Sequence record: PQ613263
DNA from: Shigella phage Moonfish
Strand: one strand, 5' to 3'
DNA length: 64,000 nucleotides
Shown: positions 1 through 60,776 of the stretch, piece by piece
Position numbering within the stretch: position 1 is the stretch's first letter
Layout of the letters: the number at the start of each line of letters is the position of its first letter
Translations under genes and position numbers: made by a program
The notes under the pieces: generated by a model
What the model saw: the letters and a program-made list of their open reading frames with translations, nothing else
The model's database searches: none
Told to the model about the DNA's origin: nothing

Positions 1-8
1 ATTCTACG

Positions 9-974: not shown

Positions 975-978
975 TCAA

Positions 979-2278: not shown

Positions 2279-2759
2279 AGGTTGGCCTTATCTTCTGGTG
2301 GTGGTCCTCGGGGCCACCATTTACTTTTGGGGTAATTCCAACGGACAGTCTACTGTTCAAAAGAAGTGGGATGACCAAAAGGTCGAAGACCTGAAGGCAA
2401 CACAAAAATTACAGGACAAATACAATGCTCTCCAAAGAAACCATAGTTATGAAGTTGGGTTACTCACTTCCCGGTTGCAGACGGCTGAAAGTAATTACGC
2501 AAGCGAGCTTGCTCGCGTTAGCAGTGATTACGATAGCCGGATGCAACAGTCTGAAAGACGAGCATCGGTATATAAACGTCAAGTCGAAGCCGGAACCCTT
2601 GAGTGCAGAAGTCTTGCAAGCCATGCAGCCAGACTCGACAATAGTCTTGAAGAGGGCAGACGTTTGGTTGAAGAACTCCGGGCAACTGTTAGACTCCGTG
2701 ACAACCAACTAATTGAGTTGGGTAAACAAATTCAGGCTGACCGTAAACTTTTTGAATAG
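2238..2759 (+). CDS. i-spanin (Rz-like)
   Basis: N-terminal TM ([16 protein letters not shown]) followed by coiled-coil-rich periplasmic domain; immediately after the endolysin. Confidence 0.5.
2449..2712 (+). CDS. o-spanin (Rz1-like lipoprotein) embedded in the i-spanin gene in another frame
   Basis: ORF wholly inside 2238..2759; lipoprotein signal with lipobox LAVITIAGC; Pro-rich mature part. Confidence 0.5.
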   Translation: MKLGYSLPGCRRLKVITQASLLALAVITIAGCNSLKDEHRYINVKSKPEPLSAEVLQAMQPDSTIVLKRADVWLKNSGQLLDSVTTN

Positions 2760-2767
2760 GAATAACT

Positions 2768-5038
2768 ATGGAACACCAAGATACTATGAAGCCGTTACCA
2801 GACCCGGCTCAATCGGATAAGCTGACAGACTGGAAGAAGGAACCAAGCATCCAACTACTAAAGGGTGACTTGGAATCAGCCAAGCCTGCTCATGATGCCA
2901 TCATGTCCCAGATTCGTGAGTGGAATGACTTGATGGAAATCAAGGGTAAGGCTAAACCCCCAAAGGTTAAGGGACGATCACAAGTCCAACCTAGACTGGT
3001 TCGCCGTCAGGCAGAGTGGCGATATGCACCATTGTCTGAACCATTCCTCTCATCCAGTAAACTCTTTAAACTAACTCCGGTTACTTTTGAAGATGAGTTA
3101 GCTGCTCGACAGAATGAGTTAGTTCTTAATTACCAATTCCGTACACAGCTTAACAAAGTGAAGCTAGTGGATGATTACGTACACAGTGTTGTAGATGATG
3201 GTACTGGTATCGCTCGTATTGGGTGGGAACGTAAGACCGTTAAGATTAAAACAGAAACCCCAGTATTCCAGCTGTATCCAATTGAGAACCAGGAACAGGC
3301 AGATGTTCTTCAACAGGCTTTACAACTTCAAGAAGAAAACCCTCGTGAATATGATGAAACAATGCCAGAGGATATTAAGGAATCTGTTAACTACTTCAAC
3401 GAAACTGGAGAAGCTACTTATGCAATCCAGACTGGGGTTACAGAGGTAGAGGTAGAGAAAGCACTGGTTAACAGACCTACCGTTGAAATGCTTAATCCTA
3501 ATAACGTAGTTATTGACCCAAGCTGTAATGGTGATTTGGATAAGGCTCTGTATGCGGTTATCTCTTTTGAGACATGCAAAGCAGACCTCATGAAGAATAA
3601 GGACCGTTATCACAATTTAGATAAGATTGACTGGGAAAGCTCCAGCCCTATGACTGACCCAGACCATGAGAGTAAAACCCCTAGCGACTTCCAGTTCAAG
3701 GATTCGCTCCGTAAGAAAGTAATTGCTTATGAGTACTGGGGATTTTACGACATCAACGATGATGGTTCACTGGAACCAATTGTTGCTACCTGGATTGGTT
3801 CTACTCTTATCCGTATGGAGAAGAACCCATTCCCGGATGGTAAGTTACCTCTGGTAGTTGTTCCATACATGCCCCGTAAACGTGAACTCTATGGTGAAGC
3901 TGATGCTGAACTGTTGGGAGATAACCAAGCTATTCTTGGTGCAACTATGCGTGGGATGATTGACCTGTTAGGCCGAAGTGCTAATGGACAACGTGGTTAT
4001 CCTAAGGGGATGTTGGATACCCTGAACCGTCGTCGATATGACGATGGTCAAGACTACGAATATAACCCAATGCAGGGTAATCCTAGTCAGGCCATTATGG
4101 AACATAAGTTCCCTGAGTTACCTCAGTCGGCAATAGTAATGACCCAGATGCAAAACCAGGAAGCGGAATCATTAACTGGGGTTAAAGCATTCTCTGGTGG
4201 TGTAACTGGTTCAGCTTATGGAGACGTAGCTGCCGGTATACGTGGTGCACTGGATGCAGCATCCAAACGTGAGATGGCAATCCTTCGTCGATTAGCTAAG
4301 GGTATGGCAGACATTGGTACTAAGATATGTGCAATGAATGCTGTGTTCTTATCTGAGAAGGAAGTAGTACGTATTACCAATGAACAGTATGTAGAGATTA
4401 ACCGAGAAGACCTTAAAGGTAACTTCGACATTGAGGTTGACATTAACACTGCTGAAATTGATAACCAGAAATCCCAGGACTTGGGCTTCATGGTTCAAAC
4501 GTTAGGTAACACAGTTGACCAGTCTATTACGTTATCTCTTGTAGCTAAGATTGCGGAACTTAAACGTATGCCTGACCTTGCACATGAGTTACGTACTTGG
4601 CAACCACAGCCTGACCCCTTGGACGAACAGCTTAAGCAATTGGCAATTCAGAAAGCACAGCTTGAGAATGAAGAGCTGCAAAGTAAGATTGCACTCAATA
4701 TGGCTAAAGCTAAAGAGGCTGCTTCTAGTGGTGACCTTAAAGACCTGGATTATCTGGAACAGGAATCTGGTACTAAACATGCTCGTGATATGGAAAAACA
4801 AAAAGCACAATCTCAAGGAAACCAGAACCTTCAGATAACTAAGGCATTGACAACACCTACCAAAGAAGGTGAAACTACCCCCAACATATCTGCTGCTGTT
4901 GGATATAACACTTTGACTAACGGGAACTCTCCACAAGAACGTGACCTAGCTGCTCAGCAAGACCCGGCTTATTCACTTGGTTCCCAATACTATGACCCTA
5001 GCCAAGACCCAGCATCGGCTCTTGGCATGAACTTGTAA
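2768..5038 (+). CDS. Portal protein (N4 gp59-like)
   Basis: 756-aa ORF upstream of head genes; size and position match the N4-type portal; low-complexity acidic C-terminus. Confidence 0.5.
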
Positions 5039-5415: not shown

Positions 5416-6636
5416 ATGACTACGGAAGCTGCAACCACAGCTTCCGACATTCTCGCAATGTCGGATGATGAGATTCTGAATATGGAAGCCCCAGCAGTTA
5501 TTGCTGAGGAAGATACTTCCACTCAGAACAACCCAGAAACCAACGGCGTACAGACTCCTGCTGAAGAAGTTGACACCCCTGCTGTTGAAGACCAACCAAC
5601 CGAAGAAACCTCCCCTGAAACTGAGCCAAACGAAGAAGATGCAGCAAATGCTTTAACTTCTGATAAAGTTGATGATAAAGTTGTCGACACAGAAGTTGAT
5701 AGTAACGGTAAGCCGATTACTAAAGCTGAACCTTCTACTGCTGAACCAGGCCAGGAACAGAAAGAAGAAGGCAAACAGTCTGAAGGTCTGCCTGCTGACT
5801 TCAACTATAAGGAAGGTTATGAGAAGTTGATGGCTCCTTTTAAAGCTAACGGCAAAATGATTACTCCCCGTTCACCGGAGGAGGCCATTAGCCTGATGCA
5901 GATGGGTGCTAACTATACTCGCAAGATGCAAGAACTTCAGCCGTACCGTAAGGTAATGCTGATGTTACAGAACAACGGTTTAATGGATGAGGATAAACTT
6001 TCTTACCTGATTGACCTGGATAAGAAGAATCCTGAAGCTATTAAAAAGTTGCTGAAAGACTCTGGTACAGATCCTCTGGAATTTAATCCAGATGAAGAAA
6101 TTAACTACCAGGGTGGCAATCACCGTGTTACCGACACCGAAGCAGATTTTGCAACCGAAATTGACGACTTAAAGTCTACTCAAGAAGGACAAGCTACATT
6201 AGGTGTTATCGGCTCGACGTGGGATGCTGCCAGTAAAGATGCTCTTTATCAGAATCGTGGTTTACTTCAGACTATTCACGAACAACGTGAGAATGGTATT
6301 TATGACACCATTGCTAACGAAGTGAATCGTCTTCAGATGTTAGGCCAGATTCCGGTTGGTACTCCGTTCATTCAGGCGTATAACCACGTTGGTAATCTCC
6401 TTGCACAACAGGGAGCATTTAACCAAGTGGCTAAGCCAGAACCAGTACAAGCAGTTAAGCCAGTGGTTCAGCCGGTAGTGCGTGTAGCACAACCCAAGCA
6501 GACCCTGACTAACAATGAGCAAGCTAAAGCAGCTTCCCCTAGTCGGGCTGCTACACGTAAAGCAACACCTATTGTAAACCCACTCGCTATGAGTGATGAA
6601 GATTTCGCTAAACTCCCAGTACCGGGTAGTCTTTAA
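5416..6636 (+). CDS. Putative scaffolding/head-assembly protein
   Basis: Highly acidic, low-complexity N-terminal third (E/D/T/P-rich); immediately upstream of the major capsid gene. Confidence 0.3.
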   Translation: MTTEAATTASDILAMSDDEILNMEAPAVIAEEDTSTQNNPETNGVQTPAEEVDTPAVEDQPTEETSPETEPNEEDAANALTSDKVDDKVVDTEVDSNGKPITKAEPSTAEPGQEQKEEGKQSEGLPADFNYKEGYEKLMAPFKANGKMITPRSPEEAISLMQMGANYTRKMQELQPYRKVMLMLQNNGLMDEDKLSYLIDLDKKNPEAIKKLLKDSGTDPLEFNPDEEINYQGGNHRVTDTEADFATEIDDLKSTQEGQATLGVIGSTWDAASKDALYQNRGLLQTIHEQRENGIYDTIANEVNRLQMLGQIPVGTPFIQAYNHVGNLLAQQGAFNQVAKPEPVQAVKPVVQPVVRVAQPKQTLTNNEQAKAASPSRAATRKATPIVNPLAMSDEDFAKLPVPGSL

Positions 6637-6652: not shown

Positions 6653-7855
6653 ATGTTAAACTATAACGCTCCAATTGACGGTCAGAAATCTAGTATTGAT
6701 GGTGCTGGTTCCGACCAGATGAATACCTTTTACTGGCTGAAGAAGGCTATTATTCAGTCCCGTAAAGACCAGTACTTCATGCCACTGGCTAACACCATTA
6801 ACATGCCGAAAAACTACGGTAAGACTGTTAAGGTGTATGAGTACGTTCCTCTGCTCGACGACAAGAACATTAACGACCAGGGTATCGATGCTAATGGTGC
6901 TACCATCGTTAACGGTAACCTGTATGGTTCTTCTAAAGACGTTGGTAACATCACCTCTAAACTGCCTCTGCTGACAGAGAATGGTGGCCGTGTTAACCGT
7001 GTAGGCTTTACCCGCCTGTCTCGTGAAGGTTCTATTCATAAGTTCGGTTTCTTCTACGAATTTACTCAAGAGTCCCTGGACTTTGATTCTGATGACCAAC
7101 TGAAAGAACACCTGTCTCGTGAACTGCTTAATGGTGCTATTCAGTTGACTGAAGCTGTTCTCCAGAAAGACTTGCTGGCTGCTGCCGGTACTGTACTGTA
7201 TGCAGGTGCAGCTACCTCTGATGCTACCATCACTGGTGAAGGTGCTACCCCGTCTGTAGTTTCTTATAAGAACCTGATGCGTCTTGACCAGATTCTTACT
7301 GAGAACCGTACCCCGACTCAGACCACTATCATCACTGGTTCCAAGCTGACTGATACCAAAGTACTTGGTGGTACTCGTGTAATGTACGTTGGTTCTGAAC
7401 TGGTTCCAGAACTGAAAGCGATGAAAGACCTGTTCGGTAACAAAGCATTCATCGAAATTCAGCACTATGCTGATGCTGGTACTCTGATGAATGGTGAAGT
7501 TGGTTGTATCGACAAGTTCCGTATTATTCAGGTTCCTGAGATGCTGCATTGGGCAGGTGCTGGTGCTGCTGCAACTACTAACCCGGGCTACCGTTCTTCT
7601 ATGGTTGGTGGTGAAGAACACTACGATGTATTCCCGATGCTGGTAGTTGGTGATGACTCCTTCTCTACCATTGGCTTCCAGACTGATGGTAAGTCTGTTA
7701 AGTTCTCCATCATGACTAAGATGCCGGGTAAAGAAACTGCTGACCGTAATGACCCATATGGTGAGACTGGCTTCAGTTCAATCAAGTGGTACTACGGTAT
7801 CCTGGTTAAACGTCCAGAGCGTCTGGCCCTGATTAAGACTGTTGCTCCTCTGTAA
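6653..7855 (+). CDS. Major capsid protein (N4 gp56-like)
   Basis: 400-aa ORF with strongly biased codon usage; position between scaffold-like gene and a strong terminator; size matches N4 MCP. Confidence 0.6.
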
Positions 7856-12121: not shown

Positions 12122-12578
12122 CAGGAGAATCCTCATGGATTTGTCATTCTTAACAGGCAACCAAACCCCACAGCCAGCGGCTATGTCTTGGATGTCTAAT
12201 AACAACCAGAACTTTAATACCCCAGCTATGAACTATAACCCAGGTGCTGCCATTGGTATGGGTGCAGATACAGGAGTAACCTCACCTACTTCTTTCTTGT
12301 CTGGTTCAGCTAATCAGTTGGGCATGAACGTACCTACCTTCCAACTAGGACTGGGTGCACTTGGTTCATTAGCTAATATCTATGGTGGTTTCCAGGCTAA
12401 TAAGTTAGCCAAAGACCAGTTGAACTTTACTAAGAGTGTTACTAACACTAACCTGAATAACCAGATTAAGTCTTATAACACTGCATTAGAAGACCGTGCT
12501 CGTAGTCGTGCTACAGCAGAGAACCGTGACCAGTCTTCAGCCGATGCTTACATTGCAGCTAATAAACTAACTCGTTAA
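12114..12578 (+). CDS. Hypothetical virion protein
   Basis: 154-aa ORF overlapping the stop of the upstream gene by 8 nt. Confidence 0.4.
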   Translation: MFNRRILMDLSFLTGNQTPQPAAMSWMSNNNQNFNTPAMNYNPGAAIGMGADTGVTSPTSFLSGSANQLGMNVPTFQLGLGALGSLANIYGGFQANKLAKDQLNFTKSVTNTNLNNQIKSYNTALEDRARSRATAENRDQSSADAYIAANKLTR

Positions 12579-12590: not shown

Positions 12591-14546
12591 ATGGCTCAAA
12601 TTACATGGCGAAATGTTGACGCACCTAACTTCTCTGGAGTTGGTGACAGCATTCGCACATTTGGCAGCATGATTGGTAACGCTACCTCCGGCTTAAGTGA
12701 TGCACTGGGTAATTTCCAGAACGCTGCTAAGCAGGAGGCTGGCAATGCCGTCATGATGAATGCTATGCAATACCAAGACCCTACTGAGTATCGTAATGCT
12801 TTGGCATCTGGTGCACTGTTTCAGGGGGTTGACCCTTCTCTGGTAAACCAACGTACTCTCCAGAATCTGGATGAGCGAGCAGGTACATTACTGGCTCAGC
12901 AAGGTCAACAGGGAACCAACGACTACAATGCTTATCGTTTTGGTCGTTTACAAGATACCAATACTGCATTGGATAATGCTTCCCCTGCTGTACGTTTACT
13001 GTCTGAGGCTTACCAGTCTGGGGACCAGAACCGTATTAATGCTGCACTGAGTCAGACTCGTGATGCACTGTCTGCACTACCTGCCGACCAGCAACTTGAG
13101 ATGATGAGTCGTCTACAGGGACAAGGTGGTCAGGCTATTAATCAAGCACAGAACCGTTTTGATTTGGGTGTGGCTCAACGTAATGATGCTGATAGTCAGG
13201 CAGCACAGGGTGTTATGGCCCAGATTACTCGTGGTGCAGAAAACCCCAATGATGCTCGTCTGTTGGCAGAAGCATATAGCAAGAATCTGTCTCCGGTTGC
13301 ACAGGCACTTTTGCAGGGATTACTGGCTAATGCTTACCCAGGTGTATATGGTAATGGTGTAGGTGCTGCTTCTGCTCCGGGTACTGCTGGTACTCGTCAG
13401 GGTTCTCCTTATGATGTTACTTACCAGTTTGCTGGTACATCTACTCCTATTACTCAAATGAGTATTGGTGATGTAATTAAACACCAGGATGGTATGAAGT
13501 CTAACCAGGGTGCTTCACCTGTTGGGGCATTCCAGATTAACCAAGCTACCCTAAAAGACTTTGCTCCCAAAGTACTTGGTTCAGATTGGCAGAGCCAGCC
13601 ACTTTCTCCTGAGAACCAGGATAAGATTGGTAAGGCTATCTTCGAACAGCGTAAGAATGGCAACCTTAAAGATACTTGGGCTGCACTTCCTAATGCTGGT
13701 GTCGGTGCTTATAAGGACATGTCATGGGAAGAGATTAAGCCAATCATTGCACAGGCTGAGGTTGGTGCTAATCCATTAGCTATGCGACAGACTGCACAAG
13801 GTAACCAAGCCGTATCTACTCTGGCTCAGGGTATGATTGGTACTCGTTCTATGCAGGACAATACCGGTAGCCTTAACACTGACTTCCTCGGTACTGTTAC
13901 CGACAATACTCCAGTAGGTGAGATTGCTAACCGTTTGTTGGAAGGCGACTTTAAGGGTGCTGACCGAAACTGGGTACTTAACCGACTGACCGATATTTCT
14001 CAACGTGGGAATATGTCACCAGCTATGGCTGCTGCTGTTATGCAACGTTCACAGACTGGTGTTCCAGAAGGTTACATTAGTCGTGCTATTGATGCAGTTA
14101 ACCCATTTATTACCAATGAAGCTGGTAATGGTATGCGTCTTAATGACCGTCAGGTAGACCAGCTAATTGAGGGTGTACGTCGAGGTGAACCACTGGAAGG
14201 TAGTGTACGTAATCTTGGGCGTGCACAGGCAGCACAGAACATTCAGGCAGCACAGACTGCTTATGATGCTGCTGTAGCTGCACTGACAAATACTCAGAAC
14301 AAGATTAACACCGGACAAACTGGTCTTACTGCATTGTTACCTGCTCGACGGGAAGCTGTTACCAGAGCTGCTGCAATGCTCCAAGCTGCACAAGGGCAAG
14401 TTCAAGCAGACCCAGCTAACCTGGCTCCAAGAGGTTTCCAGTCACAGTCTAGTGTGGACCGGGCACGAGCCAAGGAAGATGAAGAACGTGCTGCACGGTA
14501 CTTACGTCAGGCGCAAGGTTTACCTGAGTATATGCAACCTCGCTAA
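12591..14546 (+). CDS. Internal virion protein (N4 gp51-like by position), possibly with a lytic-transglycosylase-like motif
   Basis: 651-aa ORF directly upstream of the vRNAP gene; segment SNQGASPVGAFQINQATLKDF resembles the SLT signature region. Confidence 0.4.
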   Translation: MAQITWRNVDAPNFSGVGDSIRTFGSMIGNATSGLSDALGNFQNAAKQEAGNAVMMNAMQYQDPTEYRNALASGALFQGVDPSLVNQRTLQNLDERAGTLLAQQGQQGTNDYNAYRFGRLQDTNTALDNASPAVRLLSEAYQSGDQNRINAALSQTRDALSALPADQQLEMMSRLQGQGGQAINQAQNRFDLGVAQRNDADSQAAQGVMAQITRGAENPNDARLLAEAYSKNLSPVAQALLQGLLANAYPGVYGNGVGAASAPGTAGTRQGSPYDVTYQFAGTSTPITQMSIGDVIKHQDGMKSNQGASPVGAFQINQATLKDFAPKVLGSDWQSQPLSPENQDKIGKAIFEQRKNGNLKDTWAALPNAGVGAYKDMSWEEIKPIIAQAEVGANPLAMRQTAQGNQAVSTLAQGMIGTRSMQDNTGSLNTDFLGTVTDNTPVGEIANRLLEGDFKGADRNWVLNRLTDISQRGNMSPAMAAAVMQRSQTGVPEGYISRAIDAVNPFITNEAGNGMRLNDRQVDQLIEGVRRGEPLEGSVRNLGRAQAAQNIQAAQTAYDAAVAALTNTQNKINTGQTGLTALLPARREAVTRAAAMLQAAQGQVQADPANLAPRGFQSQSSVDRARAKEDEERAARYLRQAQGLPEYMQPR

Positions 14547-14564
14547 AATACTTCATACTAATAA

Positions 14565-14586
14565 AAGCCCTCCGGGGCTTTTTTCT
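14565..14586 (+). terminator. Rho-independent terminator
   Basis: Hairpin aagccctccggggctt followed by tttttt. Confidence 0.55.
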
Positions 14587-14631
14587 TACACTGGCTTACT
14601 GTAGAGTAGGCTTCCTATATACGATATAAGT

Positions 14632-17600
14632 TTGAACAGGAAACATGCTATGTCAACATTTGACCGTCTGGCAGGTTTCGCAGACAGCATCACTAATGCC
14701 AAGCAAGTCGATGTCTCTACTGCAACCTCTCAGAAGCAAGCTGCACAAGGGCAAAGCCCTTTCCAATTAACCCCAGAGAATGCTTACAATCTCCAGACTG
14801 GACGTGTAGGTAATCTTGGAACTGGTGCATTCGAACCAGGTTCACTTCAGGCTGACTTCACTCAAGCCTCCCCATTAGAAATCATTAATAAGTACGGTAA
14901 TGAGAAAGGTTTACAGATTCTTAATAGCCGAGCTAATGCTGCTGATGTTGTACGTCAGGACTTATCTAAACAGCGTACTAACGCAGAAGCATTTGGCGAT
15001 ACTCTTTCTGGTGTTGGTCTTGGTGTTGCTAATACCCTTGGGGGCATTGCTGCTCTTGGCACAGGTCTGGTCAATGATAATGCCGGGGCATCCATTGCTT
15101 CCGGGATGGATTGGCTGAATGAAGGTGTACGCAATCTCCAGTCTGATGCACTGAATGCTACCCGTAAAGTTGTTCAGAATCAGAACCAGATTTCTGCTCA
15201 AAAGAACCAGAAACTTTACGAGCAAGATATTAAGAATGGGGAGAACGATTTGGTTGCCTCCCTGTCTCGCATTGGTCGTGACGCTTTTGATTCTGTTGCT
15301 AATACACTTGATAATGGTATGGCTGCTACCGATGGACTGAGCGAAGGTGTTGGTTCCCTCTTTACTGCTGGTCCACTTATCCGTGGTGTGTCTGCATTAG
15401 GTAAAGTAATGGTTGGTGGTGATAAAGCTGTTAGGGGTATTACCTTAGCTGCTGAGTTGGGTTCACGTCCTGCACAGGTTGCACTGTCTGCTGGTCGCGT
15501 TGCTGCACCTGCTATTGCAATCGGTGGCATGGAAGCAGGTGGTGCATACCAACAGACTGCATCTGAAATCATGAAGATGTCCCACCAAGAATTGGCAAGT
15601 AAGTCTCCTGTTTACCAACAACATATTGCTGATGGTTTACCTCCTGATGAAGCACGTCGTCAGACTGCATCTGAAACAGGTATCACTGCTGCTGGCTTAA
15701 CTGCTCCAGTTGCTGCTGCTACTGGTCCACTGGTATCTCGCTTTGAACTTAACCCACTTAGAGTAGGTTCACTGGCTGGTGCTGGTTCTAATATGTTACG
15801 TGAGACTGTAGAAGAAGGTATTCAATCCGGCTTTGGTCAGTTCGCACAGAATACTGCAATCAAGGAAAATGTTGATGCATCCCGTGACACCCTCAAAGGG
15901 GTCGGTGAGCAAGCAGGGCTTGGTGCACTCTACGGCTTCGGTAGTGCTGGAGTTGCTCAAGCTCCTGGTGCAACTGTTAAAGCTGCTGGTGCTGCCACTG
16001 CTCCTGTTGTACGTACTACCCTGGCTGGTGCTTCTCTGGTTGGTAATGCATTAGCTAAAGCTGCTTCCCCTATTACTAACATTCTGGTTCAACGTGGTGA
16101 AGAAGTTGCTAAGCGTAATGAACAAGCATCCCCTGTAGCTGATGCTACGGTTAATGCTGCTGCACAAGAAGCTACTGCTCAGGCAGAACAAGCACAAGCG
16201 ACTGTACAGGAAGCAGTAGATGCAATGGATATCTCTCCTGAGGAGAAGGCTGCTGCTACTCAGTATGCTGCTGACTTAACTCAGGCAATGAACTTTGACC
16301 CTGTAGAATTGGAACAAGCTAACCCGGTAATTCGTGAAGCTGTTTCTGGTTCCACTAACCGTGTTGAAGCTATTCAGAAGATGGCTGACTTGGTTAATAC
16401 AGCAGAAGACCCTAACGTTCAAATGGAAGCTGCTATCCAGATGTATGACAACATCATGTCTATGGATAGCTTCATTAACCGTGACCCAGGTGCACTGGCT
16501 AATCTGGAACAGGGTTCACCTGCTGCTACAATCGTAGACCAGTTCTCTGGTCTGATGGCTAACGTACAGAATACACCGAAGGTACTTCGTGCATTCCGTG
16601 CTATCCATTCCATGATTCAGGAACAGGCTGAAGCAGGTAAGCTGAAAGCTACTGAAGAAGCTAACCAAGCTCAAGCAAACAACATTGCCATGGCTGCTGA
16701 CGTGTCTCCAGAAGTATTGGATGCAGATTCAGTGAACATGGTTCTGAAACATGCAAGTGAAGGTAAGATTACACTGGGGAATCGTCAACGTGCTGCCCTG
16801 CAATCTGCTGCTGCCTTGTTACAGGGTGCACGAGAGTTTGACGCTAAAGCAGAAGAACTAGGCTTACGTCCTCAAGACATTGTTAGTAAACAAATTAAAA
16901 CCGACGAGTCTCGTTCTAACGAAGGACAGTACTCTGCGTTGCAACATGCGAAACGCATTCGTTCTGCGTATAACTCTGGTAACTTCGATTTGGCTTACGC
17001 TTATCTGAGCGACTTTATGAAGTTCGCCCAGCACATGCAGAATAAGGTCGGAGCGTTGAATGAGCATCTGATTTCTGGGAATGCGGATAAGAATAAGTCT
17101 GTTCATTATCAGGCTCTCTCGCCTTCCCGTGAATGGGTACGTAGTCGTACTGGCCTCGGTGTCAATCCTTACGATACCAAGTCTGTTAAGTTTGCCCAGC
17201 AAGTAGGACTGGAGGCCAAAACCGTAGCTGATATTGCTAACGCACTTGCTACGGCTTACCCGGAGCTTAATGTTTCTCATGTGAAAGTTACCTCGTTGGA
17301 TTCACGTCTGAACAAGCCAGCTGCCCAGGTAGTTAAAGAGTTCCGTCAAGGTGGTCTTGATGCCACTCAGTCTCAACAGACCAATGAACCAGTGAATCAG
17401 GTTGATGAATCTCCTGCACCAGTGCAAGAGGACACTACTACTGTACAGCCTAAAGCTAAACCTGTGGTAGAAAATAAGACTGCTCCTACTAAGGAGACTA
17501 GCCCAAAAACAGAAGAAGTCTCTACTACCAAGTCTGAAACAGTAGAAGCTACCCTCACTAATGAGGATACCATCCAGGAAGTAGCTGAAACCAAAACAGA

Positions 17601-20600
17601 AATGGAAACAGTGTTCCCCGTCTATAACAATGAAAAGACACCGAACCAGTTCCTGAAAGCATTTACCCTACCAGAAGAACCTAAGTCTCGTACCATTGGT
17701 TCTGAGTCTCCGTTGACTGATGTTAAGCAAGCACTGTCTTCTGTTGCTCGCTTTGAAGCATTCACTCAAAAAGAAAATAACGCTCTCACAGGTGATGTGA
17801 TTAAGCGTTATCAGGACTTAATGGACTTTGGTGAAACTCTGAAGACTACTTTGTCTGAACGACTGGCTAAGTTCCTTGCTAACAAAAATGTCGGTAAACG
17901 TTTTGCAGAAGGTACGGAAGCTAACCGTTGGGTAGGTGGCAAACTACTGAATATCGTTGAACAAGATGGTGACACCTTTAAGTTCAATGACCAGTTGTTA
18001 GAGACTGCTGTGCTTGCTGGTCTGCAATGGCGACTAACTGCTACACAGAATGCTGCTGTTAAAGACATGAAAGACGTAGCTGCTATTACGGGTGTAGAAG
18101 CATCTCTGTTACCAGAAGGTATTCTGGCTGAGTTCGAGAATGCTCAGACTCTGGTTGAAGCTACTAACTCACTGGCTCAGAAGATCGAATCCTACTGGGG
18201 TTTGAACCGTAACCCTAATGCACCACTGGGTTATACCAAGGGTATCCCAATGGCAATGGCTACAGAGATTCTGTCTTCCCTCATTGAGATGGGTGAAGTT
18301 AAAGAGTCTATGCTGGATGTGTCTGAGATTGACCCAGATTCCAATAAGACTGTCGGCCTGTATACCATTGAGAAGCTGGATGACAATGATGCCATTAACA
18401 AATTCCCTACTGCTATTGAGGAAGCTGTCCTCTTAGAACCAGAAGAGAAAATGTATTTCGGTGACGACATTCCTTCCGTGGCTCAAACTCAATTACGTAA
18501 TCCTGCTGTTAAGAATACCCCGGAACAGAAAGCTGCTCTGAAAGTAGAACAGGCTACTGAGTTCCGTGTACACATGCCGATGGTTAACTTCTATGAAGCT
18601 ATGGGCCGTGACAACATACTGGAATTGATGGGTGCTGGTTCTCTTAATCCTGAACTGTTGAACGTGAACACTGCTAAGTCACTGGAGGGTAAAAACCTGT
18701 CCGTGTCCATGGCATATGATTCCTTGTTTGGTGTAATCAATCAGATTAAGGAACAGGAGAATGGACTAGATACACCTATCCACTATGGCTACAACATGAC
18801 CCGTGTAGGTCGTATGCAGATGCTTGGTAAGAACAACCCACAGTCCAGCAAACTGGTACGTGAAGCAATCCTGCCAACCTTCTCTACTATTGACTTGAGT
18901 AATGAAAACAGCCAAACGTTCTCTGACTTCCAGTTAGGTCTGGCTCAGGCATTGGGTATCAAGGTTCATAATATGTCCCGTGAAGCTATGTCTGAAAAGC
19001 TGACCAAAGCTTTGGAAGGTAATCTGAAACCTGCTGTTGATATGATGGTTGAGTTTGATAAGTCTGGTCACTTACCTGCTGATGCAGTTGATATTCTGAA
19101 GACATCTCTGGGTGGCGATAAATCATTCGTAGCTCTCATGGCTCTTATGGAATATGCCCGTTACCTGAACAGTGATGACCGTGCCAACTTTAATACCCCT
19201 CTGTACGTTGAAGCCGATGGTGTAACCAACGGTCCGATTAACGCAATGGTATTAATGACTGGTGGTAAGTTCACTCCAGACTGGATTAAGAATACTGCTA
19301 AAGGTGGTTTGTTCTTCGGTAAAGCTGGTAAGACTATGAACGAACATCGTTCACAGGATGACAGTGTTGACTTGTATGAAGCATCCACCAATGGTCTGCA
19401 ACAAGCATTGGGTGAATTGCGTAGTACTTACCGTAACAACGTTCCTGTTATGAGCCAGATGAACCATCTCCAGAAGTTAATGGACCTGTTCATCAAAGAC
19501 TTTAACTTGAATGAAGACGGTACTTTGGACCTGAAACGTGGTATCGCTAAAAACCCACTGACTATTACCATCTATGGTTCTGGTGCACGTGGTATTGCTG
19601 GCAAGATGGTTAGTGCAATTACTGACACCATCTATGAACGCTTCAGTGACGTTCTGCAAGCACGTGCTGCTGACCCTAGCATTTCCCCAGCTATGGCGAT
19701 GTTTGGTAAGGAGGCTGCGTCTGAGGCTGATGCTCAGGCTATGCTGGATACTTTCCTTACTTCTATGGAAGCACTGACTGGTAATGTTCCAGTTATGCGT
19801 AAAGGCGAACTGTCTATTCAACAGGCAGAAGGTGCTCTGACTGGTAAGTTAGACCCTCAGAAGTTTACTGTATCTGGTAATGCCTTGAAGAACCTACAAG
19901 AGAACATGCTTCACTTGTTCGTTGAACCAATGCGTACAGGTATCCGTAATACTGTTGGTGAAGGTCTGATGCACTCTACTGAGAACTTGCAGAAGGCTAC
20001 TCAGATTCAGTCTCTGGTATTGCAGGATATGTTCCAACAAGCAGTACAGGCTAAACTGGCAGAAAAAGAAAATGACCCAACGTGGAAGAAGGGTGATTTC
20101 TTAACACAGAAAGAACTGAATGAAATTCAGGAATCATTATCTCCACTGGCTCCAATGATTGAGACTGGCGCACAGACTTTCTACATTGCTGGCAGTGAGA
20201 ATACTGATGTTGCTAACCAAGTACTGGCTACCAACTTAGATGACCGTATGCGTGTGCCAATGAGCATCTATGCCCCGTCACAAGCAGGTGTTGCTGGTAT
20301 TCCATTTATGACCATCGGTACTGGTGATGGCATGATGATGCAGACCCTTTCTACTATGAAAGGTGCTCCGAAGAATACCCTGAAAATCTTTGATGGCATG
20401 AACATTGGTATCAATGACATCACTGATGCAAGCCGTAAAGCTAATGAGGCTGTATACACTTCCTGGCAGGGTAACCCTATCAAGAATGTTTATGACTCCT
20501 TCGCTAAGTTCATGAAGAATGTAGACTTCAGTAAACTGTCTGATGAAACCAAACAGGCTATCGCTAAGTCTGCTCTGGAATACGACCAGCGTGAAGGTGC

Positions 20601-30071: not shown

Positions 30072-30824
30072 TTAAGCGTAGTATTCAGCCAGATGGTCTA
30101 AGAGTTTTTGAGCGTCATTATCAATGTACGTCTCTGATTTATCGAACATACCCATTGGGGAACGTAAGCGTTTACCAACAGACTTCTTGGTTGGGCGAGT
30201 CTGGAATACGTGCTTATAGCCTAAGTCACGTTCTTCTTCGGTAATTTCAAGCATCTTGTTGCCATACTTCTCCAGTTCTTTAATGTCTACACGTTCTGCG
30301 TAAACCACTGTAGAGAAGTATGCCTCAAGGCCATTATTCTTCAGGGAGCCTTTCACTGGGATGAAGGTTTTCATCACACCAGCTGCCTCGTCGAGTTCAT
30401 CTTTGGCATGAGCAGTAATGATTACAGGCTTACCAAACTTAACAACTTTCTGTTGCAGCAGTACTTTAAAGAACTGTGCAAAGTCTCCCCAGGCTTTCTG
30501 GGTATTAGCAGATGGCAATACATATTGTGATTCCAACATGTCCATCATGAAGGTAGCAGAGTCGATAATGATACCATCAACATCGTCTGCCATTTCCCCA
30601 CCCGGAGATGCAACATCAAATGCTTCCCAAATCTGATATGGGTCTTCAATGTTGTAGGTGTTGAACTTATTACGGAAAGGTAGGCGTTTACCTGCTTCAG
30701 TATTCAGATACAACCAGCGTTCCTGGTTACGAATATTACGCAGTGATGCTGATTTACCACTCGCTGAAAATCCTGCAATCAGGATTAGCTGAGTGTTCAT
30801 ATCATTGGAAATTTCTTCGGACAT
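30072..30824 (-). CDS. P-loop NTPase (putative replication/recombination ATPase)
   Basis: Walker A LILIAGFSASGKS; 250 aa. Confidence 0.45.
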   Translation of the reverse strand: MSEEISNDMNTQLILIAGFSASGKSASLRNIRNQERWLYLNTEAGKRLPFRNKFNTYNIEDPYQIWEAFDVASPGGEMADDVDGIIIDSATFMMDMLESQYVLPSANTQKAWGDFAQFFKVLLQQKVVKFGKPVIITAHAKDELDEAAGVMKTFIPVKGSLKNNGLEAYFSTVVYAERVDIKELEKYGNKMLEITEEERDLGYKHVFQTRPTKKSVGKRLRSPMGMFDKSETYIDNDAQKLLDHLAEYYA

Positions 30825-30880
30825 TATTTTTCCTCGTTTAGTTTAGGAGTCCTTCAAACCAAAGAAAGACTCCTGTTTGC

Positions 30881-33091
30881 TTATTTGCCAGCGTAGCGTT
30901 TAGCCACAGTGACCATTACGGTTGCATTCAATTCATCATCTGGTAATGGATTAGCCAGTTTCTTATTGAATGAGTAGACGGATTGTTGTACTTGAGCAAA
31001 GTCCCAACCACTGTCTACTAATGCCAGTGCGTACTTAATCATTTGATTATTACGATTACCGGAGGCAATGCGATCAGCGAACCAACGCTCCAGATTGTCT
31101 AACGACTGAACTTCCTTCATCTGGTTCTGGAACTGCTCGTTCTTACTGGTACGAGGAATAAAGTCACGCACGTCCAACAGATTCGCATCAAGGTTGTAAT
31201 GATAGGAACCAGTTTCACAGGACATCCACTTCTTGGCTCGTTGGTTAGCAGACTCATCCGTTTCGAATGGTAGCCAAGCCATAACGTTATTCATGAACTC
31301 TTTATACTCCTCAGTATCGAGGTGTAACTCATAGTTCATTGGAATAATCAGACGGAAGCGGTTCTCTTCATCAGTATGACGCTTAGTGGTATAGGTCATG
31401 AACTTATAATCCTTCATTAGTTCATGGCACGTATGCAGTGGTACTCCACCATCACAATCAATAACAATCATGTTAAATCCTGGAATCACGTTCTCATCAG
31501 AACGATGTCCATTCTTCATGTGATGGTTCACCCAGTGCATACCGGGAGCTTGGGTTAATACATGTAGCTGGTCGAACGGTACGCGTTCACCAACATAGTC
31601 ATAAGCAAAGCTTTCACTATAAGCCACCAGCATCTCATTGGTGTCAGTCTCTTTCAGAGTTTCACCACGGAAGAACTCAATACCTTCATTGAATGTCTTC
31701 TTAATAATGATGTGCTGTTTGTAACCCCATGCTGTAGCAAGAGTCATCATCTCATTGCGAGCTGCATTACCACTCTTATAGAACGGTAAGGACTCCAGCA
31801 AGTCAGCATGGGTTACTTCTTTCCCTACTGAAGCAATATACTTAGCCAGCTTCACATAGGCTTTTTCACGATTGAGGATTGTCTGGAATGCTGCCCCGGA
31901 TTCCTCTACAAGCAGGATTGCTTGTTTGAGGTGAGCCATCTCAATGAATGAACTCTGGTCAACAAACGCCAGTGCACCTGCTAGCTTAAGAGCTTTGAAG
32001 TAACGATGGGATATTTCAGCCTTACGAATTTCTTCGTGGTCAGCCATAGCTTCTGCTTGTTTCTCACAATCAATTTTGTAAGTAATCAGAGCAATACCCA
32101 CTGCATCTTCCACAATCATCTTAAAGCCAAACAAGTTTGGGTCAGCCAGACTATGGAAGTGGTTAGCCCACTTACCAAGAGACTGAACGTTATCCTGCTT
32201 AATCAGGTTACGGTAGATTTCTTCAGGAGTCAGTGTTGCATGTGCTCGCTTGTCTAAGTGCCCGATGGCAAACAGGCAACGACGAGCATACCCTGTATCA
32301 AGGAAGTCATAGAACTGGTCTTCAGTTTGCCCACCATCCAGCAGCTTACTCGGAGTACCGAACAGCAGTAGGTTAGCAGGAGTTTTACCATCCAGTTCTT
32401 CGCCACGAACACTTTCAGCAGTGTTCTTGGTTAACTTCTGTTTTACTTTCCCCTGGTCATATAACTCAAGGAACAGGTTAAGTACTTCAACGTTGGCAAT
32501 AAGGTTGGAACCAATCTCGTCAATCTGTAGGTTAATGCCACCACAACCAGCCATAAGCAGTTTGTGACGGAGTTGTTTTACAGCAGGTGCTGTACCAGAG
32601 TCGAATGTGAATGGGAATGCCCCAGCACGTTTATACTCTGCTTCAACTTTATCGAACTCTTCCTGCTGGTCAGTACCCTGACGTGCAGAACGTTCGTTAG
32701 CAATCTTCCATAGACGGTCATTTGCAATGACGGGCATGGTGTCTTCCATAAAACGTTTACGGAAGCCAGTCATGAACCCGTCTTCAATGATATTTACTGA
32801 GTGACCTTTACCGAAACCAGATGTAGCCAACGCCATAGCGTAGATGTTTACTGGCAGGTCACCACGGTCTTTAGTTACGATGGTTGCACCCATGCAGGAT
32901 GCCATTTTAGCCAAGAAGTAGGCTACTTCGACACGGAAGAATCCCCGGTCGTTATTCTGGGTTTTATTGCAGAGCACATCTACGATTTCTTCAATCGCCG
33001 GATGATGCACTACTCCGGTAAGGTCAATACTCATGATGGAAAATATCTCTCTCTTTGTTTGCAAATGGACGCGACAGGGCAATATAAACAA
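30881..33091 (-). CDS. Putative DNA primase (N4 gp43-like)
   Basis: 736-aa ORF between the ATPase/SSB genes and the polymerase; size and position match the N4 primase. Confidence 0.4.
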   Translation of the reverse strand: MFILPCRVHLQTKREIFSIMSIDLTGVVHHPAIEEIVDVLCNKTQNNDRGFFRVEVAYFLAKMASCMGATIVTKDRGDLPVNIYAMALATSGFGKGHSVNIIEDGFMTGFRKRFMEDTMPVIANDRLWKIANERSARQGTDQQEEFDKVEAEYKRAGAFPFTFDSGTAPAVKQLRHKLLMAGCGGINLQIDEIGSNLIANVEVLNLFLELYDQGKVKQKLTKNTAESVRGEELDGKTPANLLLFGTPSKLLDGGQTEDQFYDFLDTGYARRCLFAIGHLDKRAHATLTPEEIYRNLIKQDNVQSLGKWANHFHSLADPNLFGFKMIVEDAVGIALITYKIDCEKQAEAMADHEEIRKAEISHRYFKALKLAGALAFVDQSSFIEMAHLKQAILLVEESGAAFQTILNREKAYVKLAKYIASVGKEVTHADLLESLPFYKSGNAARNEMMTLATAWGYKQHIIIKKTFNEGIEFFRGETLKETDTNEMLVAYSESFAYDYVGERVPFDQLHVLTQAPGMHWVNHHMKNGHRSDENVIPGFNMIVIDCDGGVPLHTCHELMKDYKFMTYTTKRHTDEENRFRLIIPMNYELHLDTEEYKEFMNNVMAWLPFETDESANQRAKKWMSCETGSYHYNLDANLLDVRDFIPRTSKNEQFQNQMKEVQSLDNLERWFADRIASGNRNNQMIKYALALVDSGWDFAQVQQSVYSFNKKLANPLPDDELNATVMVTVAKRYAGK

Positions 33092-35561: not shown

Positions 35562-36095
35562 TCACGCCAGATAGTAAGGCGTGCCATGCGCTTCCACCCA
35601 CTTGAGTGTACTCTCTTTCGAGATAGTCGTTGCACCTTTCAATGCTGCGTGTAACCGAGCGTGGTCAGGAACACTTAGCAATACAAGATTATCAAAGTCG
35701 TTGTTATACGGATTCTCATCACAATGATGCACACACCAGCCTTTTGGTATTTCACTGATATTAAGTGCCTCACATACTACCACATGGTGAGCAAAAACGT
35801 GTTTACTGCCTTTGCGTGCAGTATACCAATCCGGTTTAAGTACCATTAAGTAACCTTTACTGTCGGATACTAAACCTTTGTAGTTATGATGGTCTTTCCC
35901 AAATTTACCTAGCATGGGGTTATTTTCCCCCAGCTTGGAGCGTCGGTAAGACTTTGCATTTCTGTTTTGACGGTATTCTTTACTGTAGTTCTCCATAATA
36001 TATTTAGAGACTTTTTTGTAATTAATACCTAAACGCTTTGATATTTCTGCTTGAGATAGGTCAGTATTCTCGTACAGAGTCTTGATATCCATCAT
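35562..36095 (-). CDS. HNH homing endonuclease inserted in the DNA polymerase gene
   Basis: HNH core HHVVVCEALN...CVHHCDENPYNNDFDNLVLL...DHARLH; own RBS TAGGAGG; lies between the two polymerase pieces. Confidence 0.6.
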   Translation of the reverse strand: MMDIKTLYENTDLSQAEISKRLGINYKKVSKYIMENYSKEYRQNRNAKSYRRSKLGENNPMLGKFGKDHHNYKGLVSDSKGYLMVLKPDWYTARKGSKHVFAHHVVVCEALNISEIPKGWCVHHCDENPYNNDFDNLVLLSVPDHARLHAALKGATTISKESTLKWVEAHGTPYYLA

Positions 36096-36168
36096 GTGCC
36101 TCCTAAGGCAGGTATGGTTGATTTGGCTCAGGATTGCCCGGTCTGGGTTTCCCCTGAATTCACATGGT

Positions 36169-37860: not shown

Positions 37861-37869
37861 GGCTTTACC

Positions 37870-38400: not shown

Positions 38401-38410
38401 ACACCCTCCC

Positions 38411-52994: not shown

Positions 52995-53222
52995 TTAACT
53001 TAATGCATAATCCGTTTCAAGAATGTCCTGCCAGAGGCTGTCATCCAGCTTACCCGCAGAGAACTCTTGTCCCAGTACCTGAGATAGGATGAAGCCCAGC
53101 AAGTCACTCTTAGCAATGTCAGATAGAATCTGATTGTACTGACGACGTAGGTCATTACCATAGTTAGGATGACAACGAAAACCATTAGTTAAACGAGTCG
53201 TTAGCTCGCCCTTACCTTCCAT
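52995..53222 (-). CDS. RNA polymerase II large subunit, C-terminal segment (downstream exon or fragment)
   Basis: Ends WQDILETDYALS, resembling the T7 RNAP C-terminus LRDILESDFAFA; overlaps the HNH ORF stop. Confidence 0.5.
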   Translation of the reverse strand: MEGKGELTTRLTNGFRCHPNYGNDLRRQYNQILSDIAKSDLLGFILSQVLGQEFSAGKLDDSLWQDILETDYALS

Positions 53223-53856
53223 GATTAACATGAAAGCCATATGTAGCATCTGCTTGTTTACGAGCAAGCATTGCCTCCTCAAGTGTGTCGTACGTACCCA
53301 GACCGATCTGTTTGCGATTGACTGTGATGTGTGCCTGAAATCTACCAGAAGGCAGTATTCTCACACCGTTCACTTTGCTTGAAGTATTACTAGATAAACT
53401 CATATTCATCTGGTTCTGTCTGCTGGTTACATTTCTCAAATTAGACCAACGATTGTCGTTTCTAGTATGATTGATGTGGTCCACCTGGTTAGGTGTTTCC
53501 CCAGTTTCCATTATCCAGATTATTCGATGTAGTAAGTACTCTTTGCGGCCCAGGCTAACGGATAGATACCCTTCTTTGTGAGGATACCCCACAATTGTTC
53601 CGGCTAACCCACTGGCAGAGTCATAACGATGAGTCACTAGCCCACTATCCCTGTCATACCTTAAAACCTTCTGCAAAGATTCTTGGGTAATATTACCCAA
53701 GTTTATTATTAGGTTTTTACAGGTAGAGCATAGATGACCTATTGGACTCTTTCTAGCATCATAGAAGTTACAAACAAACTCATTAGAGCATTGCTTGCAA
53801 CTACAGATAGCTGTGTACTTACCAGTTTTACGTAATATTTGAGAGTTATCTAACAT
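53212..53856 (-). CDS. HNH-AP2 homing endonuclease inserted in the RNA polymerase II large-subunit gene
   Basis: HNH motif HRIIWIMETGETPNQVDHINHTRNDNRWSNL plus AP2-like NGVRILPSGRFQAHITVNRKQIGLGTYDTLEEA; own RBS. Confidence 0.6.
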   Translation of the reverse strand: MLDNSQILRKTGKYTAICSCKQCSNEFVCNFYDARKSPIGHLCSTCKNLIINLGNITQESLQKVLRYDRDSGLVTHRYDSASGLAGTIVGYPHKEGYLSVSLGRKEYLLHRIIWIMETGETPNQVDHINHTRNDNRWSNLRNVTSRQNQMNMSLSSNTSSKVNGVRILPSGRFQAHITVNRKQIGLGTYDTLEEAMLARKQADATYGFHVNHGR

Positions 53857-54148
53857 ATGGATTCCTTAGTAATTTTGCATACAATTTCAGATTGTATCCT
53901 AACCAAGGAAGTAAGTCTCCAATTTTCACTGGAGTATCGGACTATATCATCACCCACTAATCAGTGGGGCAAGGCGCTTGGGTGGTCACTTGACTCACCT
54001 ACTCTACTCACATACGAAATGCTTTCGATAGTCTCTGAACCTTCCCTCATAGAGGGCTTGGCTGCTGATTGGCATATCCATAGGACTTAGCTTTCCAGCA
54101 ATTCACCTTGTTTTCGACACGGATTACTCCGTGAAGGATCATTTATGT

Positions 54149-55180
54149 TTAATCATGTACAGTCAATACAGGGAATGGCTTCTTAGGTAAAGTGTCCAGC
54201 ATGTCTGCTACTACCTGACGGTCAACCATAGCAATAGTGCCTGGGTCGAGATAGTCGATAATAGACATAGATAAGAATCCAGACTTCTCGTAGTGTTCCC
54301 ACAAGGTCTGTACCATTTCCATGTTACCTTCAATCTCCCCATACTCTGCTGGGCCTGTGTCGCAGAGTTCACGAACAGCAGCAACCAGGTTAGCATCGAA
54401 GTTACAACGACGCAGCATCTCGCGTACCACCATCCCATCAATAGAGTGGGTGATGTTAGCAGAGAGCATACGAGTCTTCTCTTCAGTACCCTGAACCATG
54501 CGGGTAATGTCGAATGGTTTACCTAAGAAGTTAACAGTCTGTACTTCTGGAACCATGACCTTAATGACGGCATGGAAGTTGTCAGACAATACCCATACGT
54601 AACGGTTAGCATCCGGGTTACCACATTGCAGTAAGAACTTGTTCAATGCCCAAGGCCCACTAGCAACAGTTTCCATTACATTCTCAAAAGTCTTGAGACG
54701 GATACCCTCACCGAATACTTCTTTAGGCTTAGCTTCTGAACCGTAGAATGCAGTCATAACTGCCTGCTTAGTGTCACTACGCTTAATACGAGATGCTTCA
54801 CCAAGGATGTCCAACATCTTGTGATAGATAACTGTATAAGCATCACGACGTAATGGCTTACCGTTTTCACCCATGTAGTTAACTACGTTACACAGTTCAG
54901 CAGCAGAACGGTCACCAGTCAGGCAAGCCAGTAACTGCAAGCCTGATGATGTAGCATCCAGAGCTACGGCATAGCCAATAGGCTTACCGGCTTTCATATC
55001 TTTCCATGCGTTTACACCTGCATAGAACAATGCGGATTCTTCAGCTTCATCTACCAGATTAAGCAGGTTAGCTTCGTTTTCATCGAACCAGCTAATACGT
55101 TCATCCCATGTTTTCTTATCCAGACCCATGTTATTCGCAATATCAATCTTTAAATATTCTTTCGCTGTGAAAAGCTGCAT
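54149..55180 (-). CDS. T7-like single-subunit RNA polymerase, N4 RNAP II large subunit (gp16-like), N-terminal segment ending at motif C
   Basis: Motif A ALDATSSGLQ (T7 DGSCSGIQ), motif B RSDTKQAVMTAFYGSE (T7 RSVTKRSVMTLAYGSK); ORF stops right after VHD (T7 motif C IHDSFG). Confidence 0.7.
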   Translation of the reverse strand: MQLFTAKEYLKIDIANNMGLDKKTWDERISWFDENEANLLNLVDEAEESALFYAGVNAWKDMKAGKPIGYAVALDATSSGLQLLACLTGDRSAAELCNVVNYMGENGKPLRRDAYTVIYHKMLDILGEASRIKRSDTKQAVMTAFYGSEAKPKEVFGEGIRLKTFENVMETVASGPWALNKFLLQCGNPDANRYVWVLSDNFHAVIKVMVPEVQTVNFLGKPFDITRMVQGTEEKTRMLSANITHSIDGMVVREMLRRCNFDANLVAAVRELCDTGPAEYGEIEGNMEMVQTLWEHYEKSGFLSMSIIDYLDPGTIAMVDRQVVADMLDTLPKKPFPVLTVHD

Positions 55181-55764: not shown

Positions 55765-56583
55765 TTAATCCTCGTTTACTAACTCTTTATCTGCGAACTC
55801 TATAACTGCCTTATTGTAAGAGGTTCCCGCATAGTTAATATGGTATCCACATGCATATGTTCTTCCCCTCTTATCAAATTTATGTGCTAGTGAGAAGTTA
55901 TTACCTTCTTTGGTCACTAACTCCATTACTTCCTTAGCTGTACGGCTGTACTTCTCAAAGGCTTTAACTCGTTTCTCATAGTCCTGACGGGTTTCACCCT
56001 CTTTGGGTTTATCCATGTTAGGACGAGAGTCTTTTACATAGTTGGCAACGTCCCAGTTAATACAGAGTCGTTGGTTGTTCATACGGTTAATGTGGTCAAG
56101 GCAGACGTCCATCTCATGATGGTTCTTCTTGAGGATGATTGAGCCTTTAGATTCATAGTAGCCAGTGTCCCGATTAGTCAGGACTGGCTTAGGCTTACTG
56201 ACGATAGGTAATGGATACTGGAATGCCTCCAGTTCCATCTGAACATCTTCACTAATCTCATAAATAACACCGAACTTGTCGATGGTAGGGTCATAGTTGA
56301 AGCAGTCATTCTCTGCCATCTTATACAGACAGTCAGCGATATACTGAGCGTCATCTGAGTGACTCATGAGAGAGCCAATCATAGTCTGAATGTCAGCACG
56401 TTTATGTAGGGCAATCTGCACCATTGCATCAATGAGCAGCTTATAATCAATTTCTAAATAGGCGGCGAATGCCTTAAAGTCAATTTCTTTGGAGTCCTCA
56501 AATTCCTTCCTCATGCGAGGGAGTAATTGGTTTTTGTTGAAAAGGATTTCAAGTTGCTTCTGATGTTCAATAGATGAGTACAT
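55765..56583 (-). CDS. RNA polymerase II small subunit (N4 gp15-like)
   Basis: 272-aa ORF immediately upstream of the large subunit; sizes match the N4 two-subunit RNAP II. Confidence 0.45.
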   Translation of the reverse strand: MYSSIEHQKQLEILFNKNQLLPRMRKEFEDSKEIDFKAFAAYLEIDYKLLIDAMVQIALHKRADIQTMIGSLMSHSDDAQYIADCLYKMAENDCFNYDPTIDKFGVIYEISEDVQMELEAFQYPLPIVSKPKPVLTNRDTGYYESKGSIILKKNHHEMDVCLDHINRMNNQRLCINWDVANYVKDSRPNMDKPKEGETRQDYEKRVKAFEKYSRTAKEVMELVTKEGNNFSLAHKFDKRGRTYACGYHINYAGTSYNKAVIEFADKELVNED

Positions 56584-56616
56584 CGCATATTCTCCTAAAT
56601 GTTATTAATAACCAAA

Positions 56617-56631
56617 AGCTGCGGAGCAGCT
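56617..56631 (-). promoter_or_regulatory. Hairpin promoter candidate (N4 vRNAP-type), core agctGCGGAGCagct
   Basis: 6-bp stem, 3-nt GGA loop; 35 nt upstream of the RNAP II small-subunit start; identical core at three other sites. Confidence 0.55.
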
Positions 56632-59897: not shown

Positions 59898-59930
59898 TTT
59901 ATTACTCCAGTAGTTATAGGGATACCCAAT

Positions 59931-59945
59931 AGAAGCGGAGCTTCT
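59931..59945 (-). promoter_or_regulatory. Hairpin promoter candidate (N4 vRNAP-type), core agaaGCGGAGCttct
   Basis: 6-bp stem, GGA loop; intergenic. Confidence 0.55.
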
Positions 59946-60719: not shown

Positions 60720-60761
60720 GATGATAGCTCCAATAGTTGATGATAGGACGACATGTCCATA

Positions 60762-60776
60762 ACATGCGGAGCATGT
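60762..60776 (-). promoter_or_regulatory. Hairpin promoter candidate (N4 vRNAP-type), core acatGCGGAGCatgt
   Basis: 6-bp stem, GGA loop; in a 267-nt intergenic region. Confidence 0.5.

Follow-up and report, generated by a model that had tools for sequence, protein, structure and literature searches.

In Shigella phage Moonfish, an N4-like podophage of the G7C-like group (Gamaleyavirus, Schitoviridae), the gene at positions 14650..25002 (+) is, with a probability of about 97%, the orthologue of N4 gp50 and encodes the RNA polymerase that is encapsidated in the virion (vRNAP). The window, i.e. the whole stretch of 64,000 nucleotides of sequence record PQ613263 analyzed here, had been called N4-like in an earlier note, made from the sequence alone, on account of a vRNAP of the N4 type. 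The comparison with N4 gp50 proposed in that note gave an end-to-end match: in a phmmer search against all PDB chains, residues 1-3449 of the protein aligned with residues 1-3499 of N4 gp50 (E = 0, 5011 bits), at an amino-acid identity of 67% in the alignment. The full-length chains matched in this search were 11gp, 9pnq and 9pnr, named 'Virion DNA-directed RNA polymerase', and the crystal chains of the mini-vRNAP (2PO4, 3C2P, 3Q0A) match residues 995-2068 of the query with ~1697 bits. All four Pfam families of the N4 vRNAP (PF21867, PF21624, PF21894, PF21769) were found, at 102-337 bits against cut-offs of 27; the E-values were 9e-101 for N4_RNAP_helical, 4e-57 for vRNAP_dom_2, 8e-56 for vRNAP_dom and 3e-29 for vRNAP_plug. 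In PHROGs, phrog_2206 ('virion RNA polymerase') was matched with E = 0 over profile positions 5-3405 of 3406. A very large virion-gene product is also a feature of the crAss-like virion RNAPs of the two-barrel, RNAi-polymerase-like kind (phi14:2 gp66 type), which are structurally distinct from the N4 type (PMC13434306). The Moonfish protein shares no more than its size with them; every significant match was to the T7-like N4 family and none to a two-barrel RNAP, so that membership in that group is extremely improbable. A megablast search with the gene returned 84 phage records, in 58 of which 80% or more of the gene is covered; the annotation of the closest ones is 'virion RNA polymerase'. The N4-type vRNAP gene of Moonfish is thus already known, being 97% identical at the protein level to annotated orthologues of E. 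coli phages such as PhAPEC7 gp81.

The ORF listing contains one uninterrupted reading frame at 14632..25002 (+) with 3456 amino acids and TTG as the first possible start, exactly the position and length given in the earlier note. Translation almost certainly begins six codons inside the TTG frame, at the ATG at 14650: AGGA precedes it 7 nt upstream, the PhAPEC7 CDS starts there, and its methionine is the first residue aligned with N4 gp50. The protein therefore has 3450 residues, not 3456, and its gene ends with a TAA stop at 25002. The frame is about four times as long as any other in the window, the runner-up having 887 amino acids, and the chance of 3456 stop-free codons at the base composition of the window is ~1e-87. 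The GC content at codon positions 1, 2 and 3 (0.59, 0.40 and 0.38) supports its coding character. Comparison with PhAPEC7 revealed 527 codon differences that are synonymous and 104 that are not, evenly distributed along the gene, which points to purifying selection over the full length of the protein, in the polymerase core and the remainder alike. Three antisense ORFs within the gene (15216-15572, 16864-17280 and 19477-19821) were considered and rejected as chance ORFs, the host frame being strongly conserved coding sequence. That the long frame was created by an assembly error or by the fusion of several genes has next to no likelihood, since 3449 of its 3450 residues align colinearly with N4 gp50, it shows no indels against PhAPEC7 gp81, and it occurs as the same single gene in at least 58 independent phage genomes.

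Aligned with its N4 counterpart, the Moonfish vRNAP is a colinear three-part protein, made up of an N-terminal domain (NTD) with a low-complexity linker behind it, a T7-like core and a large C-terminal domain (CTD; subdomains C1 and C2). The boundaries were taken from the N4 structure paper of 2026 (PMC13434306) and mapped onto the protein by alignment. The NTD (14650..17352, +; residues 1-901) corresponds to N4 gp50 1-906 with 61% identity; in N4 this part is disordered, binds lipid and is implicated in injection (PMC13434306, PMC4496689). The linker (17353..17610, +; residues 902-987), also described in N4 (PMC13434306), is rich in T, E, V, P, K and Q and corresponds to N4 907-1006. With 46% identity it is the most divergent part of the protein and holds most of the difference in length from N4, namely a 17-residue deletion and three deletions of one residue each; a further deletion of 6 residues lies just past the linker. 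The T7-like single-subunit RNA polymerase domain (17608..20859, +; residues 987-2070) corresponds to the N4 mini-vRNAP 998-2103. It is the best conserved part, with 72% identity to N4 overall and 94% in the bin that starts at N4 residue 1901. An 8-residue deletion relative to N4 is found at the junction of core and CTD. Subdomain C1 (20896..21627, +; residues 2083-2326) corresponds to N4 2124-2375 with 63% identity, and C2 (21628..24999, +; residues 2327-3450) to N4 2376-3500 with 70% identity and a single gap of one residue. The CTD of N4 serves in autoinhibition of the polymerase and is needed for encapsidation (PMC13434306, PMC4496689). In total, the difference in length between the two proteins (3450 versus 3500 residues) is made up of 18 short indels of at most 17 residues each. 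Conservation is lowest in the NTD, the linker and C1 (46-63% identity to N4), so that membrane insertion or autoinhibition could depart in detail from the N4 pattern.

The central T7-like polymerase domain that the earlier note had proposed to locate is thus present at residues 987-2070, matched by the mini-vRNAP chains and by Pfam, and its catalytic residues are intact. In the alignment, all 13 functional residues checked are identical to those of N4, as are their local contexts. In the numbering of the mini-vRNAP, they are K437 and R440, which contact the initiating NTP; E557 and D559 in motif A; R666, K670 and Y678 in motif B; D951 in motif C; and K114, R119, W129, D901 and R904, which contact the hairpin promoter. 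The T7-like motifs TxxGR, A, B and C are all intact in the core. We take D559 and D951 to be the catalytic Asp pair and R666, K670 and Y678 to be the motif B residues; the conserved motif contexts agree with this assignment. The catalytic naming of these five residues is reportedly that of Kazmierczak et al. from 2002. The roles of K437, R440 and E557 are described for N4 (PMC4496689), as are the promoter contacts of K114, R119, W129, D901 and R904 (PMC4496689, PMC13492108). Two-thirds of the protein (NTD and CTD) are non-catalytic and match no other family, as would suit a giant structural or ejection protein whose polymerase core has decayed while another enzyme takes over early transcription. 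This is very improbable: all residues of catalysis (TxxGR, A, B, C) and of promoter contact are those of N4, the core is better conserved than any other part and is under equal purifying selection, and cognate hairpin promoters have been kept in the window.

Subdomain C1 contains an HExxH motif, HELVH at residues 2184-2188, which lies within the fully conserved block HELVHASTFE and is identical in N4, PhAPEC7 and Moonfish. The boundaries of C1 and the presence of the motif were remarked upon for N4 (PMC13434306). A true metallopeptidase activity of the zincin type in the injected polymerase is unlikely; the alternative is that the motif is only a structural remnant. A putative activity might consist in, for example, self-processing that frees the autoinhibitory CTD, or in cleavage of a target in the host envelope or cytoplasm. 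If true, the peptidase would be a property of the whole family and not specific to Moonfish. Searches of the NTD, C1 and C2 singly against Pfam (E up to 1), and of the whole protein and C1 against NCBIfam (E up to 0.1), gave no sign of a further activity, be it that of a peptidase or of a lysin; the scores of 13-15 bits were noise below the cut-offs, which range from 23 to 200.

The gene order in the window, assigned from PHROGs, PhAPEC7 and the N4 record, is endolysin, spanin, portal (2768-5038), gp57-like (5416-6636), major capsid protein (6653-7855), gp55-, gp54-, gp53-, gp52- and gp51-like genes and vRNAP on the plus strand. It is followed on the minus strand by convergent gp49- and gp48-like genes, tRNA-Ile and replication genes. 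The order from the portal to the convergent gp49/gp48 pair agrees with the N4 record and with PhAPEC7, and bears out the view that it mirrors N4 in reverse orientation. The vRNAP gene closes the gp52-gp51-gp50 block of ejection proteins in the late module. The gp52 orthologue (12135..12578, +; 147 residues) is 58% and the gp51 orthologue (12591..14546, +; 651 residues) 49% identical to the N4 protein; in N4, gp51 and gp52 form an envelope-spanning channel for the vRNAP (PMC13434306). The gap between the gp51-like gene and vRNAP holds a terminator-like hairpin (14564..14584, +; AAAGCCC-TCCG-GGGCTTT followed by a T run), which was read directly from the sequence and is absent from the output of a simple terminator scan; PhAPEC7 has an annotated terminator at the equivalent spot. 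With a terminator upstream of the gene, late expression may therefore need read-through or a promoter of its own. In a scan, sigma-70-like promoters turned up less often than in shuffled sequence, and the spacer 14547-14649 contained none. The late promoters of N4 do not resemble the consensus and have N4SSB as their activator, and because of this dependence on an activator the scan is uninformative for the vRNAP gene. Seven nucleotides past the vRNAP stop lies a 10-bp GC-rich hairpin (25010..25033, no strand assigned), flanked by a run of A and, on the opposite side, by a T-rich stretch. Late (+) and middle (-) transcription meet at this place, where PhAPEC7 has terminators annotated on both strands, and the hairpin looks like a bidirectional terminator.

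The vRNAP had also been expected to anchor the reading of hairpin promoters in this element. A pattern derived from the P2 hairpin of N4 (GCTYCGC-N3-W4-G on the RNA-sense strand) yields just three sites when run on the first 21 kb of N4, with 0.05 expected; the three are taken as P1-P3. In the window it matches exactly three canonical sites, with 0.16 expected, all of them on the minus strand, which is that of the early genes, and at the early end. Read as template strand, all three form a 6-bp stem closed by a GGA loop, and a 4-nt A/T spacer then leads to a C at +1. The P3-like promoter (56613..56631, -; template C(+1)-AAAA-GCTGC-GGA-GCAGC) is situated immediately upstream of the gp15-like gene, like the third site of N4. 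The P2-like promoter (59927..59945, -; GAAGC-GGA-GCTTC) has a stem-loop identical to that of N4 P2, and the P1-like promoter (60758..60776, -) has the stem-loop CATGC-GGA-GCATG. The gene behind the P3-like site encodes the small subunit of RNAP II, the N4 gp15 orthologue (55765..56583, -; 272 residues; phrog_2166, E = 8e-115), which by analogy with N4 would be a product of early transcription driven by the vRNAP.

A heterodimeric RNAP II had been expected as well, and the genes of both subunits are present, but not as two simple ORFs, for that of the large subunit contains a group I intron. The latter gene, the N4 gp16 orthologue, spans 52995..55180 (-) with its exons and intron: exon 1 at 54151-55180, the intron at 53183-54150 and exon 2 at 52995-53182, all on the minus strand, with an ORF for an HNH endonuclease inside the intron (53212-53856). 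The gp16-like ORF ends after 343 residues at the sequence VHD of catalytic motif C, and the last 61 residues, 70% identical to N4 gp16 344-404, restart ~970 nt downstream. Rfam detected a complete group I intron (RF00028) at 53917-54160 (-) with 91 bits and E = 5e-22. The intron boundaries are canonical, a U ending exon 1 and a G ending the intron, and the predicted splice 54151|53182 yields VHD-C-FRC, the same as HDCFRC in N4. The intron splits the gene at motif C, so that the catalytic subunit of RNAP II would need RNA splicing. The same insert is carried only by vB_EcoP-ZQ2 (94% identity), where the region is annotated as two 'RNA polymerase' CDSs and an HNH gene. The core of the intron is similar to sequences that, in phages of Salmonella and E. 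coli such as Meda and tootiki, fall within annotated DNA-polymerase genes.

The steps by which the Moonfish vRNAP may act were taken from the N4 literature (PMC4496689, PMC13434306, PMC13492108). By this analogy, a few copies of the protein would be packaged in the capsid, for which the CTD would be needed. Upon infection and receptor binding, gp52 and gp51 would be expelled first and make a channel across the envelope. The vRNAP would come next as a loosely folded 'beads-on-a-string' chain, with the NTD assisting at the inner-membrane complex. In the cytoplasm the core would bind the promoter hairpins, extruded by gyrase supercoiling and stabilized by host SSB, and would contact the GGA loop through K114, R119 and W129 and the -8G through D901 and R904. 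It would then transcribe the early genes, including gp15 and gp16 for RNAP II, and this early transcription may help to draw the genome in. Finally, the CTD would dock on the polymerase core and dampen its activity.

The best relatives of the vRNAP gene in the megablast search are phages phi G17, PhAPEC5, PhAPEC7 and IME11, with 93-94% nucleotide identity over the full length. Compared with PhAPEC7, PhAPEC5 and phi G17, the gene is 92-94% identical over 100% of its length (best value 93.8%), and window positions 25003-50000 are 91-93% identical over 89-94%. PhAPEC7 is classified in Gamaleyavirus, Enquatrovirinae, Schitoviridae, and Moonfish lies within the range of similarity that defines this genus (above roughly 70% nucleotide identity). 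Moonfish is assigned to the G7C-like Gamaleyavirus phages and is not a close relative of N4 itself. Over the ~35 kb of the window compared, no Gamaleyavirus species in INPHARED of August 2025 came up to the 95% nucleotide identity expected of members of one species. Moonfish is probably a separate species of this well-known genus, because its best relatives are ~91-94% identical, under the usual 95% line. The exact vRNAP protein has no identical entry in a collection of 15 billion protein sequences. Several database records mislabel the gene as 'DNA polymerase', 'translation initiation factor 2' or 'hypothetical protein'.

The main value of the gene is for annotation, as it shows the element to be a lytic phage of the N4-like kind (Schitoviridae, Gamaleyavirus). 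Once the phage is known to be of this kind, its transcription by three polymerases, its hairpin promoters, the way its modules are oriented and the convergent terminator after the gene are accounted for. The vRNAP family of N4 has been studied for ~50 years, and structures of the full-length protein came out in 2025-2026; for this reason the gene adds no new biology. The practical points are the mislabelled GenBank records and the probable standing of Moonfish as a species of its own.

Among known systems, the vRNAPs of PhAPEC7 (gp81, YP_009056186), PhAPEC5, phi G17, IME11 and the other G7C-like phages are closest, with the same length of 3450 residues and no indels; PhAPEC7 gp81 differs from the Moonfish protein by ~104 amino-acid substitutions in an even spread. 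These Gamaleyavirus relatives also have the same flanking genes and terminators. N4 gp50 (YP_950528; 2PO4, 3C2P, 3Q0A, 9PNQ, 9PNR, 11GP) has the same end-to-end architecture, the core with its plug module and the HExxH motif in C1, and in N4 the gene has the same place after gp52 and gp51 and the hairpin promoters the same consensus. N4 differs in belonging to Enquatrovirus, not Gamaleyavirus, and its gp50 is 50 residues longer, mostly in the linker and at domain junctions. Pseudomonas phage DEV, of a distant genus of the Schitoviridae, is similar by the descriptions drawn on from PMC11445570 and PMC13434306, which give it the same three-gene ejection block with a giant vRNAP. The relationship of the N4 vRNAP to the T7-like RNA polymerases is established (PMC4496689), and the Moonfish core shares with T7 RNAP and mitochondrial RNAP the motifs TxxGR, A, B and C, the catalytic Asp pair and the Lys and Tyr of motif B. 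Compared with these enzymes, the vRNAP is about four times larger, would by analogy with N4 be packaged and injected, and reads a DNA hairpin instead of a duplex promoter sequence; the N4-specific plug and the autoinhibitory CTD are found in the vRNAP only.

The large-subunit gene of the heterodimeric RNAP II (the N4 gp16 orthologue, 52995-55180, minus strand) carries a group I intron of 968 nt (53183-54150, minus strand), which matches Rfam RF00028 with 91 bits (E = 5e-22) and contains an HNH homing-endonuclease ORF (53212-53856). The intron is inserted directly after the 'VHD' of catalytic motif C, and the predicted splice yields VHD-C-FRC, the same as in N4. When 50,697 phage records were searched, the insert was found only in vB_EcoP-ZQ2 (94% identity), in whose record it bears no intron annotation. 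A free-standing endonuclease VII / HNH-like ORF of 193 aa (55182-55763, minus strand) lies between the gp16-like gene and the gene for the small subunit (N4 gp15 orthologue), abutting both without a gap. This ORF is shared with G7C and a few relatives, whereas most Gamaleyavirus records are without it (coverage drops to 56-58%). In the relative PhAPEC7, introns with endonuclease genes are annotated in the DNA polymerase gene (35891-39176) and in the gp44-like gene (30387-31935). In contrast, the counterparts in the window appear intact, the DNA polymerase gene (42630-45293, minus strand) being one unbroken ORF of 887 aa and the gp44-like gene (30072-30824, minus strand) one of 250 aa. Close relatives therefore differ, from one gene to the next, in the introns and homing endonucleases that they carry. 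A single tRNA gene, tRNA-Ile with anticodon AAT (26817-26895, minus strand), has the gp48-like gene on one side and the replication module on the other; a 'tRNA-Xle' is annotated at the equivalent place in PhAPEC7.

Within the C-terminal domain of the virion RNA polymerase (vRNAP), residues 2653-3397 (window approximately 22606-24840), which lie in the C2 subdomain, match phrog_19273 (E = 5e-25), a profile of 4846 positions and of unknown function. The region matched is the C-terminus of the profile (4036-4801), suggesting that the C2 domain is also present in still larger phage proteins. Orthologues of the vRNAP are wrongly named 'translation initiation factor 2', 'DNA polymerase' or 'hypothetical protein' in several GenBank records (MH358458, OM982646, PV029541, PP301343, and others).

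The P1 promoter of N4 is less than 100 nt from the genome end, whereas in the window small ORFs occupy approximately 3.2 kb more (60800-64000, minus strand) upstream of the P1-like hairpin promoter (60758), a predicted vRNAP promoter. The source record seems either to have a different start point or to be circularly permuted, as in phi G17, in which case right-end genes similar to gp70-72 would stand ahead of the early region.
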